64,000 bases of DNA, taken from the IMG/VR virus record IMGVR_UViG_3300025834_000005; one strand, 5' to 3'. Positions 19,373-59,777 of this stretch are shown here, in pieces. The first letter of the stretch is position 1, and each line of letters begins with the position of its first letter. A program made the translations under genes and the position numbers. Origin of the DNA: a virus. The notes under the pieces were generated by a model that was not told the origin of the DNA, made no database searches, and saw only the letters and a program-made list of their open reading frames with translations.

Positions 19373-19439
19373 GGAGTTTTAGCTCAGTTTGATAGAGCGG
19401 TAGAAATACAGGTCAGAGGTTTGAATCCTCTACACTCCC
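19373..19439 (+). ncRNA. tRNA-like element lacking an anticodon arm
   Basis: Acceptor GGAGTTT/ACACTCC (1 mismatch). D arm GCTC-AGTTTGATA-GAGC. T arm AGAGG-TTTGAAT-CCTCT. Variable region AGGTC. Anticodon arm replaced by GTA-GAAA-TAC (19400-19409). Confidence 0.55.
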
Positions 19440-22085: not shown

Positions 22086-22218
22086 GGCAGAATAGCGGAA
22101 TTGGTAAACGCTATATCAGAACTATGGGCGACGTTTAACGATAAGGCAAACCCTAAATGTTTGATATAATCAGGGACTTATCGCTCTGAATTTATTGGTT
22201 CGAGTCCAATTTCTGCCA
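22086..22218 (+). tRNA. tRNA-Leu(UAA)-like gene, expanded to 133 nt
   Basis: Acceptor GGCAGAA/TTCTGCC. D region GCG-GAATTGGTAAA-CGC. T arm ATTGG-TTCGAGT-CCAAT. Anticodon hairpin CAAAC-CCTAAAT-GTTTG (22147-22163, C at position 33). 34 extra nt after the D arm; ~30-nt variable region. Confidence 0.55.
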
Positions 22219-22290: not shown

Positions 22291-22381
22291 GTCGAAGTAG
22301 CTCAGTTGGTTTAGAGCACCAGCATCGGTCTACGTTTACGTAACGTGTAGGGGGTCAGGGGTTCGAGTCCCTTTTTCGACA
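22291..22381 (+). tRNA. tRNA gene with a 16-nt insert in the anticodon-stem 5' strand
   Basis: Acceptor GTCGAAG/TTTCGAC, with canonical D and T arms. Deleting 22321-22336 gives stem CCTAC/GTAGG and loop GTAACGT (anticodon AAC). The unspliced alternative has a TTACGTA loop (ACG). Confidence 0.55.
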
Positions 22382-22467: not shown

Positions 22468-22647
22468 AGAGCTATGCAGCAGGGGAACTGTTGTACCTAT
22501 TTATAGGATGGCAATGATGCAGAACGGAGTTATCAAATGGATTACATTTAGCTAATGTTTCCATTTAACCAATCTGTAATCATAAATAAAAATAGCAAAT
22601 GCGCATTTGCTTATTTTAGCCTTTGGGTTCGACTCCCTTTAGCTCTG
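22468..22647 (+). ncRNA. tRNA-like gene of 180 nt with a ~106-nt internal expansion
   Basis: Perfect 7-bp acceptor AGAGCTA/TAGCTCT. D arm CAGC-AGGGGAACT-GTTG. T loop GGG-TTCGACT-CCC. Short hairpin CCTA-TTTA-TAGG where the anticodon arm should be. Internal hairpins at about 22533-22567 and 22595-22612. Confidence 0.4.
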
Positions 22648-22735
22648 CATAAAGGAAGAGGCGGTTCATAAAAATCTGGAAAATCCAGATACCGAGAAGT
22701 ATAAAAAATTCTTCTTCCGATTAAAGTATTAATAC

Positions 22736-22777
22736 ACCTTCCATGCCTCTCCACGATGCACACTTGGAAGGTTTTTT
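22736..22777 (+). terminator. hairpin + T-run closing the tRNA-like cluster
   Basis: ACCTTCCA 22736-22743 pairs with TGGAAGGT 22765-22772, followed by TTTTT. Confidence 0.5.
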
Positions 22778-22781
22778 CTTT

Positions 22782-22811
22782 TGTAACCTTTTCAACTTTA
22801 TTACGTATAAC
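22782..22811 (+). promoter_or_regulatory. phage promoter-like bipartite motif
   Basis: TGTAACC 22782; TACGTATAAC 22802; ATG 22827. Confidence 0.7.
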
Positions 22812-48779: not shown

Positions 48780-48809
48780 TGTAACCTTTTAATCTTCTTT
48801 ACGTATAAT
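48780..48809 (+). promoter_or_regulatory. phage promoter-like bipartite motif
   Basis: TGTAACC 48780; TACGTATAAT 48800; ATG 48834. Confidence 0.7.
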
Positions 48810-48833: not shown

Positions 48834-50159
48834 ATGTTTGATTTAAAAGGAAAGCACACAGATGCTATTTTATATTTAGATAATTATGAGGACGGTTTAT
48901 TCGAGCAAATCTACCCAATCATTAACTCATATGTATCCAAAGGCTTAAAGGTTCGTATTATGCCAGATGCCCATATTGGTAAAGGTATCTGTATCGGTTT
49001 CACTATGGAATTGGGTCAGTATTTGAATCCGAACTGGTGTGGCGTTGATATTGGCTGCGGAATGCTGTCAGGCAGATTTAAAGCAAATGGCGTATTAGAC
49101 TTAGCCATGATCGATGAAAAGATCAAGAAATTAGTTCCTATGGGATTTAATGTTCATGAGGGTGCTAAGTCGAAAAAGATTCCATATGCCGAAGTACAGG
49201 AATTAGCGAACAAATTTGCTGAAAAGTATAATGAAAAGTTTGGTACTTCTTATGTTGCGCCTTCTTACAATGAGAAATGGCTGAAAACTAAGCTAAAGAC
49301 TATTGGTATGGATGCTGAGAAGTTATTCAAGTCAATCGGAACTTTAGGTGGTGGTAATCACTTCATTGAACTTGGGTATGACGAAGAGTCAAAGGATAAC
49401 TGGATTACAGTTCACTGTGGTTCAAGAAACTTAGGTGTTAAGGTATGTGAGTACTGGCTGAACCAAGCTAAAACACAGTCAAATGATACCTCACCTGAAT
49501 ATCTTGCGGAATTCGATGCTTTGGTTAAGAATACTGTGGATAGATCAACAATACCTCAGTTGATGAAGGAATTAAGAGAGAAATATAAAAAGGGTATTGA
49601 TCGTGATTACCTTTCAGATGAATTGTCCGTAGGATATTTGTTTGATATGATCTTTGCTCAAAAATATGCTGAATGGAATCGTCAGACTATACTTGATATA
49701 ATCCAAAAGATTTTGAAAGTGAAGGCTTTTGACGAAGTTATTTCATCAGTGCATAACTATGTCGACTTTCATGACTTCATCATCAGAAAAGGCTCTATTT
49801 CATCATATGTGGGTCAAAAAATGATTATTCCTTTTAATCAAAAGGATGGTATGCTTATCTGCGAAGGTAAATCAAATCCTGACTGGAATAACTCTGCGCC
49901 ACACGGAGCAGGTAGACTCTATTCAAGATCGAAAGCTAAGGAATTGATCACTCTTGAAATGGTTGAAGAATCAATGAAAGGAATCTATTCAACATCAGTA
50001 TGTAATTCGACTATTGATGAATCGGTTTTTGCCTACAAAGATTCTAAAATGATCGAAGAAGCGATTCAAGATACCGCAACAATTCTTCATAGGGTAAAAC
50101 CTATTTTGAATATTAAGGATTCAACAGCCGCTCCAAGACGTTCGAAGAAAAATCAGTAA
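48834..50159 (+). CDS. rtcB: RtcB RNA 3'-phosphate/5'-OH ligase
   Basis: CGVDIGCGM, TLGGGNHFIELG, HCGSRNLG, NSAPHGAGR. Confidence 0.9.
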   Translation: MFDLKGKHTDAILYLDNYEDGLFEQIYPIINSYVSKGLKVRIMPDAHIGKGICIGFTMELGQYLNPNWCGVDIGCGMLSGRFKANGVLDLAMIDEKIKKLVPMGFNVHEGAKSKKIPYAEVQELANKFAEKYNEKFGTSYVAPSYNEKWLKTKLKTIGMDAEKLFKSIGTLGGGNHFIELGYDEESKDNWITVHCGSRNLGVKVCEYWLNQAKTQSNDTSPEYLAEFDALVKNTVDRSTIPQLMKELREKYKKGIDRDYLSDELSVGYLFDMIFAQKYAEWNRQTILDIIQKILKVKAFDEVISSVHNYVDFHDFIIRKGSISSYVGQKMIIPFNQKDGMLICEGKSNPDWNNSAPHGAGRLYSRSKAKELITLEMVEESMKGIYSTSVCNSTIDESVFAYKDSKMIEEAIQDTATILHRVKPILNIKDSTAAPRRSKKNQ

Positions 50160-57008: not shown

Positions 57009-57038
57009 TGTAACATTTGAAAAGTTCTTACGTATAAC
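57009..57038 (+). promoter_or_regulatory. phage promoter-like bipartite motif
   Basis: TGTAACA 57009; TACGTATAAC 57029; ATG 57068. Confidence 0.65.
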
Positions 57039-57067: not shown

Positions 57068-58501
57068 ATGAGTAAATTGAACCCTATTTTAAAAAGTGGC
57101 GTTTCTGATTTAAAATCAGATGAAAGACTTGCTGGTGGATTTGGAACCAGAGCAGCTAAACAAGACGAATTAGCTCTATTACGTAGAGTTGTTTTAGCGA
57201 ACCTATTATGGGAAAACATTGCGTATGCTAACGGTGAAGATGTTTCAACACAGATCAGCCAGTTGATTCCGCAATGTAATCCTCAAGATGTTGCTGATCT
57301 TGCTGTTGAGGCGAGACTTGAGCAGAAATTGCGTCATACTCCTTTGTTTATTTGTGTTGAAATGCTGAAACACGTTGGATATTCTGCGTTGGTTGCCGAT
57401 ATCTTACCAAAGATTATCACAAGAGCAGACATGATTACAGACTTTCTTGCTATCTACAAGAAACAGAATGGCGGTAAGCTAAAGCCTTTGGCTGCTGCTG
57501 CTAAGAAAGGTTTGGCGAAAGCATTCGATAACTTTAACGAATACCAATTCGCTAAATATGACAGGGATGCCGAGATCAAGTTAAGGGATGCTATGTTTTT
57601 AGCTCACCCAAAACCATCTTCACAGGAAAAGATTGAACTTTACAAGAAAGTTGCTGATCGTACTTTGAAAACTCCTGATACATGGGAAGTTGCTTTATCG
57701 ACAGGTAAAGATAAGAAAGCCACATGGGAGAGATTGATCGATGAAAAGAAAATCGGTGGTTTGGCAATGTTGCGCAATGTACGTAATATGGTTCAGTCGG
57801 GTGTTAACTCGAATAGCATTAGAAAGGGATTGAAAAATCTAAATAGTTCGATGTTATTGCCTTTCAATTTCTTAACAGCCTCAAGGTTTGCACCTGAGTA
57901 TTCGAGAGATATTGAGGATGCTATGGTTGAGTCTTATAAGAATCTTCCTAAATTATCTGGAAAGACATTATTCATTGTCGATATTTCAGGCTCAATGGGT
58001 GCTAAATTATCTGACAAGTCGGGAATGTCCAGAATGGATGCTGCTTGTGCAATGGCTATGCTTGCGATTAATCAATGTGAAAACTATGAAATCGTAGCAA
58101 CTGCTGGGAATGATGGTTCGCATAAAGGTGCTCATAAGCATATTCTAAATCCAAAAAAGGGATTCGATGTGTTCAAGCAAATTCAAAGTGCTGGAAGTGA
58201 AATCGGCTGTGGTGGTATTTTCACCAGACAGTGTATCGAATGGTGTAAAGCCAACGTATCTGATACATTCGACAGAATTATCATATTCTCTGACTCACAG
58301 GATTGCGATCTTATGAATGCGAGAATTCCAGCACCTTACGGCAAATATAACTATATTTGCGACGTATCGTCAAATGAGAGAGGCGTTAACTTTAGGAATG
58401 TATGGGATGCCGAAATTACAGGTATGTCTGAAAACTTCCTAACATATATCGCTGCAAACGAAGGTCTAACAAATAAATTTGACGACCAGAGTGAAAATTA
58501 A
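57068..58501 (+). CDS. rsr: Ro60 ortholog (TROVE domain + C-terminal vWA)
   Basis: TROVE signatures ...TPDTWEVALS..., GGLAMLRNVRNMVQSG; vWA MIDAS FIVDISGSMG. Confidence 0.85.
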   Translation: MSKLNPILKSGVSDLKSDERLAGGFGTRAAKQDELALLRRVVLANLLWENIAYANGEDVSTQISQLIPQCNPQDVADLAVEARLEQKLRHTPLFICVEMLKHVGYSALVADILPKIITRADMITDFLAIYKKQNGGKLKPLAAAAKKGLAKAFDNFNEYQFAKYDRDAEIKLRDAMFLAHPKPSSQEKIELYKKVADRTLKTPDTWEVALSTGKDKKATWERLIDEKKIGGLAMLRNVRNMVQSGVNSNSIRKGLKNLNSSMLLPFNFLTASRFAPEYSRDIEDAMVESYKNLPKLSGKTLFIVDISGSMGAKLSDKSGMSRMDAACAMAMLAINQCENYEIVATAGNDGSHKGAHKHILNPKKGFDVFKQIQSAGSEIGCGGIFTRQCIEWCKANVSDTFDRIIIFSDSQDCDLMNARIPAPYGKYNYICDVSSNERGVNFRNVWDAEITGMSENFLTYIAANEGLTNKFDDQSEN

Positions 58502-58504
58502 TCA

Positions 58505-58554
58505 ACAAAGGTACTATTTATACTTGCAAATTAAATATTAAATAGTACCTTTGT
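58505..58554 (+). terminator. 16-bp perfect hairpin with an 18-nt loop
   Basis: ACAAAGGTACTATTTA 58505-58520 pairs with TAAATAGTACCTTTGT 58539-58554. Confidence 0.55.
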
Positions 58555-58570
58555 AAAAATATTAAGTAAT

Positions 58571-58635
58571 AGCGTTCGGTAAGGGTTACTTCCTCCATAA
58601 ATGAAATCACACCCTACCATCAGTTCTTTGCTTAC
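58571..58635 (+). ncRNA. structured RNA module U1 (Y-RNA-like candidate)
   Basis: AGCGTTC + helix GGTAAGGGT (58578-58586) / ACCCTACC (58611-58618) + tail ATCAGTTCTTTGCTTAC. Confidence 0.5.
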
Positions 58636-58650
58636 AAAAATTTAGATAAT

Positions 58651-58720
58651 GGCGTTCGATACGGTTACTTCCTTTTACGAAATATTCACCGTATTATCTT
58701 TTTCCTTATCTATTTATATC
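58651..58720 (+). ncRNA. structured RNA module U2
   Basis: GGCGTTC + helix GATACGGT (58658-58665) / ACCGTAT (58688-58694) + tail TATCTTTTTCCTTATC... Confidence 0.5.
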
Positions 58721-58785
58721 GGAGTGTGTCTTGGCTTGTAATGCAGTATACGGTATTATATGAGGATCGTCCCCTCGCACACCGA
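58720..58785 (+). ncRNA. short tRNA-like element (acceptor/T-arm minihelix plus one hairpin)
   Basis: CGGAGTG/CACACCG (1 mismatch); T-arm-like TGAGG-ATCGTCC-CCTCG; no D arm. Confidence 0.25.
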
Positions 58786-58797
58786 CAAATGAATAAT

Positions 58798-58909
58798 GGC
58801 GTTAGAAACAGTTTCATCAACTCAATCTCAATAATTAAGATCAACTCAATCTCAATAATTAAGTAAATACAAAACTCTGTCTCTCATTTTCCTTATTCAT
58901 CTATATTAT
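58798..58909 (+). ncRNA. structured RNA module U3 (contains a 24-nt tandem duplication)
   Basis: GGCGTTA + helix GAAACAG (58805-58811) / CTGTCTC (58877-58883) + tail TCATTTTCCTTATTCATC... Confidence 0.45.
58817..58864 (+). repeat. tandem duplication 2 x 24 nt
   Basis: TCAACTCAATCTCAATAATTAAGA at 58817-58840 and TCAACTCAATCTCAATAATTAAGT at 58841-58864. Confidence 0.9.
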
Positions 58910-59033
58910 AGGGCGTTAGCTCAGTTGGTAGAGCGCGAAATTCTCTTTTACACCTTTTCCCTTTATTGTGGCGTTCGTAAAAGTTACTTCATTCTTAATG
59001 ACGAGGTCGGTGGTTCGAGTCCATCATGCCCTA
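58910..59033 (+). tRNA. tRNA-Lys(CUU)-like gene interrupted by a 51-nt insert in the anticodon stem
   Basis: Acceptor AGGGCGT/ATGCCCT. D arm GCTC-AGTTGGTA-GAGC. T arm GGTGG-TTCGAGT-CCATC. Variable region AGGTC. Deleting 58938-58988 gives stem CGTCA/TGACG and loop TTCTTAA. Confidence 0.65.
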
Positions 59034-59044
59034 CGAAAAACAAT

Positions 59045-59120
59045 AGTGTTCGAGACAGTTTCATCAAAAAAATCGAAATTTTTATACAAAAAACTCTGTC
59101 TTAACTGTTCTTTGTTTTTT
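59045..59120 (+). ncRNA. structured RNA module U5
   Basis: AGTGTTC + helix GAGACAG (59052-59058) / CTGTCTT (59096-59102) + tail AACTGTTCTTTGTTTTTTTT. Confidence 0.45.
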
Positions 59121-59128
59121 TTGAATAT

Positions 59129-59164
59129 AAAAGGTCAACATACTCAAAATATGTTGACCTTTTT
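59129..59164 (+). terminator. 13-bp hairpin + T-run abutting the promoter box 1
   Basis: AAAAGGTCAACAT 59129-59141 pairs with ATGTTGACCTTTT 59151-59163. Confidence 0.7.
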
Positions 59165-59194
59165 TGTAACCTTTTTTATCGAGTTACGTATAAT
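59165..59194 (+). promoter_or_regulatory. phage promoter-like bipartite motif
   Basis: TGTAACC 59165; TACGTATAAT 59185; ATG 59220. Confidence 0.7.
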
Positions 59195-59219
59195 ATAGAA
59201 ACAATTTAAATTTATTGAA

Positions 59220-59777
59220 ATGTTAAAAAATACTGAAATTAAGATCATCGACTTTAGAACGTCGTTAAACAAAGAAAACGAAAATGAATACGTTATTCAG
59301 CCTAATTATAAGGTTCAATACGAGAACGTTATAATTGAATTAAAAGGTAAAACATTTCTCGTTAATATTGGCTGTCAGAGTGTGACAATCAATAAGGATA
59401 ATGTATTACCAATCGCTCAAGAGTTTGAGGGTATCGATAAAAAACCAGTGCTTTACAAACTAATTTTGCCAAATGATGATAAACGTGAATTAAAATCAAT
59501 GAGAAATCTCCCAATATATAAAGAGTCTTCGCCATCCTTACACATATCGTCAAATGGTAAAGTTTATGACAGAGAGAAATTTAGCATCGTTGAAAAAACG
59601 ATAACGCCATCTAATGAGTATTTTAAGAAAAGTGATACGTTGAGCACTGTGCAATATTTAAAAAAAGACCGTAGATTGTACAGGGACGACATACAAAATA
59701 TAAGAAAAATTTTAAATACAATGTGCGATCATTTTAACATTGAATACCCTGACGTTAAAGACTCTAAAAATGAGTAG
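59220..59777 (+). CDS. hypothetical protein
   Basis: ORF track. Confidence 0.65.
   Translation: MLKNTEIKIIDFRTSLNKENENEYVIQPNYKVQYENVIIELKGKTFLVNIGCQSVTINKDNVLPIAQEFEGIDKKPVLYKLILPNDDKRELKSMRNLPIYKESSPSLHISSNGKVYDREKFSIVEKTITPSNEYFKKSDTLSTVQYLKKDRRLYRDDIQNIRKILNTMCDHFNIEYPDVKDSKNE

Follow-up and report, generated by a model that had tools for sequence, protein, structure and literature searches.

A probable Y RNA array beside the Ro60 gene of a crAss-like phage, including a tRNA-ordered circular permutation of YrlA

Y RNAs and their protein partner Ro60 are conserved from bacteria to humans, and their mechanism is understood in very few systems. Y RNAs encoded beside phage Ro60 genes have been known since 2014 from mycobacteriophages, CcrColossus and phage G, and now also from phiLo. 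The bacterial Y RNAs YrlA and YrlB lie near the Ro60 gene on the same strand, carry the 5' motif GNCGAAN0-1G and open the V region with a conserved YUAY (Chen et al. 2014, PMC4201824). Only YrlA possesses a tRNA-like domain, ordered V, T arm, closed acceptor stem-loop and D arm (PMC4201824), and Wang et al. liken it to a tRNA that is circularly permuted and whose acceptor stem is closed (bioRxiv 10.1101/312249). In Mycobacterium smegmatis both RNAs are processed from one precursor and bound by Rsr, YrlA being cleaved by RNase P and provided with CCA (PMC4201824). The Ro60 of phage phiLo binds stem-bulge-stem Y-like RNAs that are encoded beside it, and enters a complex with host PNPase (PMC12135203). 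Here we describe a comparable locus in a 64,000-nucleotide stretch of viral DNA, IMG/VR record IMGVR_UViG_3300025834_000005, hereafter the window. Downstream of its Ro60 gene, five copies of one structured module, U1 to U5, occupy positions 58563–59120 on the + strand. They probably constitute an array of Ro60 partner RNAs of the bacterial and phage Y RNA type, co-transcribed with Ro60 from a promoter-like motif at 57009 to a terminator at about 59169.

A first-pass annotation, made from the letters of the DNA alone, had reported five copies of the motif RG[CT]GTT[CA]G, each accompanied by a helix. A repeat search indeed returns one five-member family of direct repeats, starting at 58570, 58650, 58797, 58969 and 59044. 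The motif is in no excess over the window as a whole (11 matches on both strands, 6.6 expected), and six of these 11 fall on the + strand within 58571–59052, a span of 482 nt where about 0.03 would be expected. The sixth, at 58912, is the 5' acceptor/D junction of a tRNA-like RNA and not a module. The annotated helices are present as well, with the corrections that U1 contains one bulged A, that U3 has an A.C mismatch, which is perfect pairing in the ortholog from a related phage, and that U5 ends in a G.U pair. This related phage, L002, carries a syntenic locus with a Ro60 86 % identical to that of the window, and its orthologs of the motif read GGTGACTG, GGCGTCTT and GGCGACTG. Of the 8-mer, only the first half is kept in relatives, where it follows a bulged U (U-R-G-Y-G). 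What had been taken for U-rich tails is in fact the 3' strand of an internal loop (..UKUU), followed by a C-Y that pairs with R-G and then by a lower stem. The lower stems differ among the units, yet each is complementary to the 5' flank of its own unit, and a single U is always bulged before R-G.

The units are positioned 62–620 nt past the Ro60 gene, all on the + strand. The free-standing ones, U1, U2, U3 and U5, measure about 70–112 nt, pair their 5' and 3' ends and share one layout of lower stem, bulged U, R-G:C-Y, internal loop, upper stem and an apical region that starts with UUACUUC or UUUCAUC. U1 (58563–58634) has the lower stem TAAGTAA/TTGCTTA, bulged U 58570, AG:CT and the loop strands CGTTC and ATCAGTT. 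Its upper stem GGTAAGGGT/ACCCTACC appears in the L002 ortholog in the compensated form TGGCATGGT/ACCATGCCA, and its apical region begins with UUACUUCC. U2 (58643–58712) is built from the lower stem TAGATAA/TTATCTA, bulged U 58650, GG:CC, the loop CGTTC/ATCTTTTT and the upper stem GATACGGT/ACCGTATT. U3 (58789–58900) combines the lower stem ATGAATAA/TTATTCAT, bulged U 58797, GG:CC and the upper stem GAAACAG/CTGTCTC with the UUUCAUC variant of the apical start. Its apical loop holds a perfect 24-nt tandem duplication (two copies of ATCAACTCAATCTCAATAATTAAG, 58816–58863) without counterpart in L002, which argues that the loop tolerates insertions. U5 (59035–59120) likewise carries the UUUCAUC variant, on the upper stem GAGACAG/CTGTCTT, above the lower stem (GAA)AAACAA/TTGTTT(TTT), bulged U 59044, AG:CT and the loop TGTTC/AACTGTT.

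The simple anchor URGYG...UUACUUC was found in several copies beside every TROVE gene examined, always on the strand of the gene. A covariance-model search of related phages, which the first-pass annotation had proposed, recovers the family across Ro60 loci on the same strand. The first model, R1, was built from 21 units of other phages only, with loops trimmed to give a gapless alignment. Over both strands of the 64-kb window it reports only U2 (36.0 bits, E 1.5e-6 for the whole window) and U1 (22.4 bits) at E≤10, and it misses U3 and U5, with their long loops and UUUCAUC variant, even with filters off, so that a refined model, R2, was needed. U2 is the only window unit in the R2 training set, and U1 lies outside the training set of both models. 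R2 yields exactly four matches in the window, namely U5 (47.9 bits, E 1.3e-8), U2 (47.2 bits), U1 (39.8 bits) and U3 (30.0 bits, E 1.6e-4). Over 83 viral loci and the window (84 sources) R1 gives 96 matches, all on the + strand. Of the 83 viral loci with Ro60, 70 have at least one R2 match, and the 207 matches in total all share the strand of Ro60. In 20 rsr loci of a genome collection R2 gives 65 matches, all on the rsr strand and most of them just upstream of the gene. These 20 loci are mostly chromosomal contigs of Acidobacteria, Reyranella and Cytophagales, together with a few contigs of metagenome-assembled genomes (MAGs). A loose descriptor written by hand, T-R-G with any two stems, was dropped, as it returned about 500 matches in shuffled sequence.

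In the R1 alignment 95.7 % of the stem cells are paired, against 41–50 % when the partners are slid by 1–3 columns. Covariation in homologs, on which the first-pass annotation had made its helices depend, is very strong. Two-sided changes occur in 15 of 16 pairs, four pair types are found at many positions, the R:Y pair beside the bulged U is split almost evenly (AU 42, GC 38), and the covariation score is 0.94 compared with 0.23 in shuffles. The alignment underlying the covariation (A3) was fitted to the structure of the model and its pairing counts are therefore somewhat inflated; the effect is far larger than this bias. G.U cells number 56 and A.C cells 7, which identifies the + strand as the RNA strand. 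Clustered direct repeats in a non-coding, AT-rich stretch might also act as DNA, in the form of protein-binding iterons or an origin, and we attach a negligible probability to this, since about 270 matches all lie on a single strand, the eightfold excess of G.U over A.C is sensible only for a + strand transcript, and pairing rather than sequence is conserved.

The same data bear on the first-pass alternative that the units are decayed tRNA gene fragments, and on a reading as selfish repeats, in either case without a function of their own. This view could draw on GGCGTTAG, which also stands at the 5' end of the tRNA-like RNA, and on the several aberrant tRNA-like sequences in this phage. Covariation and distribution refute it, as the helices are kept through many two-sided changes among loci whose Ro60 proteins are 38–86 % identical, positions U6, G8, G10, UUAC and UUC are highly conserved, and the linkage to Ro60 is strict in strand and position, in phages and bacteria alike. 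A functionless origin is accordingly most improbable.

Within the family, conservation is highest in UUACUUC at the apical start, with an invariant first U and 85–96 % conservation at the other positions. The bulged U (U6) is conserved at 98 %, G8 and G10 of U-R-G-Y-G at 99–100 %, and U-U-C of the 3' strand is conserved as well; the consensus of the 5' strand reads U-R-G-Y-G-W-A. Within the internal loop, 5' Y-G-W-A faces 3' U-U-K-U, and the opposed positions are conserved and non-canonical (U.U 83 %, G.U 100 %, W.R, and A-U 66 %). Watson–Crick covariation was sought across the internal loop and none was found. Judged from its conservation, this loop looks like a protein-recognition surface. 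The conserved module is the presumed Ro60-binding site, and its UUACUUC hinge matches the published YUAY "kink" of YrlA.

The fifth module, U4, lies between U3 and U5 inside a tRNA-ordered RNA of 124 nt (58910–59033, + strand). Its 7-bp acceptor stem is open and its D arm canonical, and a V region and a T arm are present; an anticodon arm is absent and no CCA is encoded. The parts of this RNA are ordered acceptor-5', D arm, closed module, V, T arm, acceptor-3'. U4 itself (58945–58990, + strand) starts with the upper-3' strand CTTTTAC (58945–51), the 3' loop strand ACCTTTT, CC, and a C-G pair that closes a 6-nt loop, TTTATT. The second part follows with bulged U 58969, GG, CGTTC, the upper-5' strand GTAAAAG (58977–83) and UUACUUC, and leads into V and the T arm. 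This strand order, together with models of such chimeras from other phages, bears out the first-pass claim of a circular permutation inside a tRNA-like gene. The accompanying label "tRNA-Lys-like" is unsupported, as no anticodon arm can be formed at 58910–59033 and ARAGORN calls neither a tRNA nor a tmRNA in the window, which encodes no canonical tRNA. The Rfam tRNA model (RF00005) aligns the acceptor, D and T arms at 42.6 bits, with an insert of 64 nt where 13 are expected. Compared with a canonical tRNA, the predicted Ro60-binding module thus takes the place of the anticodon arm.

By parsing the loci we found 55 distinct chimeras. Unguided RNAalifold on 20 chimeras recovers the acceptor, D, upper-stem, CY:RG and T helices, with 17 of 25 pairs compensatory. 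A model built from 18 chimeras of other phages (R3), with the window and L002 left out, matches the window RNA over its full length at 92.6 bits (E 2e-20) and detects 59 chimeras in 43 of the 83 viral loci, including those of crAss001, cr112_1 and cr106_1. Over 80 genome-collection loci it finds six RNAs in only five contigs. The three best-scoring contigs encode a Ro60 59–64 % identical to that of the window and have the look of crAss-like phage sequence that ended up in MAG bins. Not one of the six RNAs lies in a chromosomal locus of Acidobacteria or Proteobacteria, though canonical units abound there, and the tRNA-ordered, permuted form of YrlA appears to be confined to phage-like sequences.

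Read as a gene for a decoding tRNA, the 124-nt element would contain the module as an intron, to be excised before the phage RtcB joins the exons. RtcB is encoded 7 kb upstream, and permuted as well as intron-containing pre-tRNAs matured by ligation occur in archaea and algae (bioRxiv 10.1101/312249). However, removal of the module leaves no 5-bp anticodon stem with a 7-nt loop, neither in the window nor in the crAss001 chimeras, ARAGORN remains negative, and the supposed insert, which recurs as the module of the free-standing units, is more strongly conserved than any other part of the RNA. We also know of no bacterial splicing endonuclease, and altogether consider an intron very unlikely. 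Further aberrant tRNA-like RNAs are found elsewhere in the window, at 19373–19439 (67 nt, without anticodon arm), 22086–22218 (133 nt, insert of about 65 nt) and 22291–22381 (91 nt, 29-nt insert). ARAGORN calls none of them, and R3 and the Rfam tRNA model detect their acceptor, D and T parts only.

Like YrlA, the tRNA-ordered RNA of the window lies beside Ro60 on the same strand and presents a 5' G-N-C/U-G in the module and then a YUAY, here the UUAC after the upper stem. Its tRNA-like body has a GCUC/GAGC D stem, a UUCGA T loop, a 7-bp acceptor and no anticodon loop, and its D arm UAGCUCAGUUGGUAGAGC matches the YrlA consensus GUAGCUCAauuuGGUAGAGC. Relatives of the window units within the covariance family have the canonical YrlA layout: most of the long bacterial units inspected are ordered module, V, T arm, closed acceptor hairpin, D arm, module. 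Some members, for example in L009, L078, L094 and Paracidobacterium acidisoli, read GGCGAAG exactly as published, and the covariance models align the window motif, RG[CU]GUU[CA]G, with such members column for column. The window motif keeps G-N-C/U-G and has UU in place of AA, so that CGUUC sits where CGAA stands in YrlA. As motifs and layout of the family match YrlA and YrlB, the window units are read as divergent Y RNAs. The Ro60-linked family, its strand, its covariation and its YrlA-type motifs thereby bear out the first-pass description of Y-RNA-like units, and the proposed elaboration of a YrlA-type arrangement takes concrete form in the tRNA copy, a circular permutation of the canonical YrlA order.

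The window chimera differs from YrlA in topology and motif. In YrlA the termini lie in the Ro60-binding stem and the acceptor is closed; in the window RNA the acceptor is open and a tiny hairpin closes the binding stem. CGUUC replaces CGAA. The chimera lacks the layout of Rfam YrlA (RF02553), with termini in the Ro60-binding stem and a nested tRNA domain, and the window stays below the 69-bit gathering score of that model. It is thus a circular permutation of YrlA that would work like YrlA without being a member of the family as defined, and its nearest functional equivalent is the M. smegmatis form after RNase P cleavage.

The free-standing units are closer to YrlB and to Yrl1 and Yrl2 of phiLo, short RNAs without a full tRNA domain (PMC4201824, PMC12135203). 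U1, U2, U3 and U5 share with these the short stem/internal-loop/stem form beside Ro60, the motif within the internal loop and the presence of several RNAs per locus, probably cut from one precursor. The stems of all four covary and their bulged U and internal loop are conserved, the stem of U4 being closed by a hairpin. Unlike in the Salmonella and M. smegmatis RNAs, where only the 5' strand of the loop is recognisable, both strands are conserved here (5' URGYG, 3' UKUUCY), the hinge UUACUUC is nearly invariant, and a single locus contains four free and one embedded copy. With metazoan Y RNAs and Yrn1 of Deinococcus radiodurans the units have in common an end-paired bulged helix as the Ro60 site and a variable effector loop, and Yrn1 also bears tRNA-like arms, in yet another orientation. 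In contrast to these RNAs, the window has no detectable similarity to GGUCCGA or the Y_RNA model, and the bulge is a single U of the 5' strand beside R-G:C-Y. A third topology occurs in other crAss-like loci (L032 3921–4048, L053 730–862, L055 1936–2068 and L037 2778–2914) and not in the window; there a D arm, a true anticodon stem-loop and a T arm stand in tRNA order within a Y RNA stem that replaces the acceptor, similar to Yrn1. These loci also carry permuted chimeras and plain units.

The window belongs to a crAss-like phage, and its gene at 57068–58501 (+ strand, 477 aa, TROVE and vWA) shows about 65 % nucleotide identity with the TROVE genes of crAss001, the PhiCrAssBcn phages, cr112_1 and cr106_1. 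The product matches Pfam TROVE with E 1.6e-16, the Ro60-vWA match being weak and below the curated cutoff. A profile of the window protein together with ten homologues from phages matches the solved Ro60 of Thermus phage phiLo (PDB 9L5Y/9KOP) over its full length (residues 19–462, E 1e-41), and also Xenopus Ro60 (1YVP, 5e-7) and human Ro60. The gene therefore encodes a full-length Ro60; the first-pass annotation had already named it a TROVE-vWA (Ro60) gene.

A promoter-like bipartite motif, TGTAACATTT-N-TTACGTATAA, is located at 57009–57037 (+ strand), 31 nt before the Ro60 start codon. Motifs of this kind, TGTAAC(C/A)TTT-N(~12)-TTACGTATAA, occur 21 times in the window, all on the + strand, where none is expected by chance. 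They span 1011 to 59193, lie upstream of many genes (e.g. 22782–22810) and are probably the phage's own promoter class. A scan for the sigma-70 promoter consensus was uninformative, promoter-like counts equalling those in shuffles. The next copy after 57009 is found at 59165–59193, and the array is followed by an intrinsic-terminator-like hairpin, GGTCAACATA/TATGTTGACC, with a run of TTTTTT (59129–59169, + strand). A consensus terminator scan of the window did not report this obvious terminal hairpin. From promoter motifs on both flanks and none inside, and from the terminal hairpin with its T-run, we infer a single transcription unit comprising Ro60 and the array.

Further elements of this unit are kept in L002. 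Directly 3' of the Ro60 stop codon, a perfect 16-bp hairpin without a subsequent T-run (58505–58554, + strand) may serve as a 3' stabiliser of the mRNA or as a processing site. Between U2 and U3 folds a mini tRNA-like element (58720–58785, + strand). Its acceptor-like stem, CGGAGTG/CACACCG, has 7 bp with one A.A, its T-arm-like stem of 5 bp carries the 7-nt loop AUCGUCC, and a discriminator A is present. The T stem changes from GAGG/CCUC to AAGG/CCUU in L002 in a compensatory manner. The element is seen in this lineage only, and it may act as punctuation for processing by RNase P and RNase Z. At a distance from the array, positions 22737–22772 match the Rfam abiF RNA with 40.5 bits, against a gathering score of 37. 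A promoter motif follows closely, and T-arm-like sequences lie nearby at about 22620–22650.

Several observations weigh against the assignment as released Y RNAs, in addition to the structure-fitted covariation alignment. The window units read UU where the published motif has AA (GGCGUUCG vs GNCGAANG). The Rfam Y_RNA and YrlA models, which the first-pass annotation had wanted run on the locus, give no match at 58400–59250 even at E≤10, and only the tRNA model responds there; units of the same family in L078 match RF02553 partly, at 34–42 bits and hence under its threshold. No unit was found in the flanks examined of 13 of the 83 viral Ro60 loci. Single-sequence folding energies of the units are those of shuffles (z −0.9 to +0.7), so that thermodynamics alone is uninformative in such AT-rich RNA. 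Finally, there is no promoter motif from the Ro60 gene to the terminator, and the units lack promoters of their own. The latter point, and a first unit only 62 nt past the stop codon, would suit modules that act in cis within the 3' untranslated region (UTR) of the Ro60 mRNA, as autoregulatory Ro60 sites or stabilisers that are not released. Such a role cannot be general, because like units stand upstream of Ro60 in other phages and in bacteria. Moreover, every unit is closed by a lower stem of its own, the array is interspersed with tRNA-like elements, a classic type of processing signal, and YrlA and YrlB of M. smegmatis are excised from a single precursor (PMC4201824). We therefore regard a purely cis-acting function as unlikely.

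For an array of Y RNAs, we propose one transcript that would contain the Ro60 mRNA and, behind it, the array. At the tRNA-like RNA between U3 and U5 and at the mini element between U2 and U3 it would be cut by RNase P and RNase Z of the host, which would free the neighbouring units. Each RNA would then bind the phage Ro60 through its conserved module early in infection, leaving the variable apical loop or the tRNA-like body as the effector end. In this way the RNA could gate Ro60 or attach it to a factor of the host, for instance PNPase or tRNA-handling enzymes. The effector model is drawn by analogy with the Ro60/Y RNA/PNPase machine of Deinococcus and Salmonella, and with phiLo Ro60, its Y-like RNAs and PNPase. 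In crAss001 the TROVE gene is early, being expressed within 10 minutes of infection (PMC8375218). This timing fits a takeover or protection of RNA metabolism early in infection.

A role in RNA surveillance or repair is conceivable alongside the phage RtcB, whose gene at 48834–50159 (+ strand, Pfam RtcB E 4e-56) is preceded by a promoter-like motif at 48780–48808. RtcB is an RNA-repair enzyme and in Salmonella shares an operon with rsr and Y RNAs. More speculatively, crAss-like phages might have returned YrlA to tRNA order with an open acceptor, so that it could undergo RNase P and RNase Z maturation, CCA addition and perhaps aminoacylation, couple Ro60 to the tRNA machinery and serve in an early counter-defence or RNA-repair particle. 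We hold this to be rather improbable as a whole. If true, the machinery concerned would be the CCA-adding enzyme, EF-Tu and the ribosome, or tRNA-targeting defence nucleases, the particle would consist of the chimera, the free Y RNAs and RtcB, and the tRNA-like elements would be the processing punctuation of the array.

Comparable arrays are present in reference crAss-like genomes, where gaps that follow the TROVE (and HNH) genes contain Y RNA units without GenBank annotation. In crAss001 an unannotated 0.9-kb gap after TROVE (L012 4197–5101, MH675552 ~95.96–96.87 kb) holds three free units and two chimeras. The unannotated gap of cr112_1 (L013 4883–5690) contains three or four free units and two tRNA-ordered chimeras, and the chimera region of cr106_1 is likewise unannotated. 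Some Ro60 loci show additional features. In several crAss-like phages tmRNA genes lie at most a few kb from the Ro60/Y RNA locus (L003 2593–3117, L005 6522–6829 and L014 401–704), and that of cr106_1 is annotated. In a Bacteroidales MAG contig (CAMEWE010000005.1, L105 2296–2379), an 84-nt stretch matches 23S rRNA 1077–1160 with 59.9 bits; it is flanked by Y RNA units on both sides and lies shortly upstream of Ro60. We take this to be the L11/GTPase-associated-centre region of 23S rRNA, and the stretch might mimic an rRNA fragment inside a Y RNA array. Directly upstream of Ro60 in IMGVR_UViG_3300037067_016568 (L078 2040–2440), six repeats of about 40 nt (..GGAGAATAGCGTTCGTTCCCAGG.AACTACAGG..) alternate with variable spacers of about 28 nt in an array-like layout, and contain TAGCGTTCG, as in unit U1 of the window.

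Taken as Y RNAs, which we consider likely, the units are of a known kind, and the novelty lies in a topological variant and in the group of phages that carries them, including the cultured crAss001. We found no publication linking crAss-like phages with Y RNAs or Ro60 partners. New are the definition of the binding module by two strands, arrays of 4–6 units per locus and the tRNA-ordered, permuted YrlA. Phages of the crAss-like group are among the most abundant human gut viruses. Many of them carry Y RNA arrays beside an early-expressed Ro60 gene, for which crAss001 offers a cultured and tractable model. The predicted Ro60-binding module is sharpened to two conserved strands, a bulged U, an invariant G.U and the UUACUUC hinge, and this definition detects Y RNAs in phages and bacteria that the Rfam models miss. 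The tRNA-ordered form with its free acceptor, finally, bears on the purpose of the tRNA-like domain of YrlA and on the origin of YrlA from tRNA.

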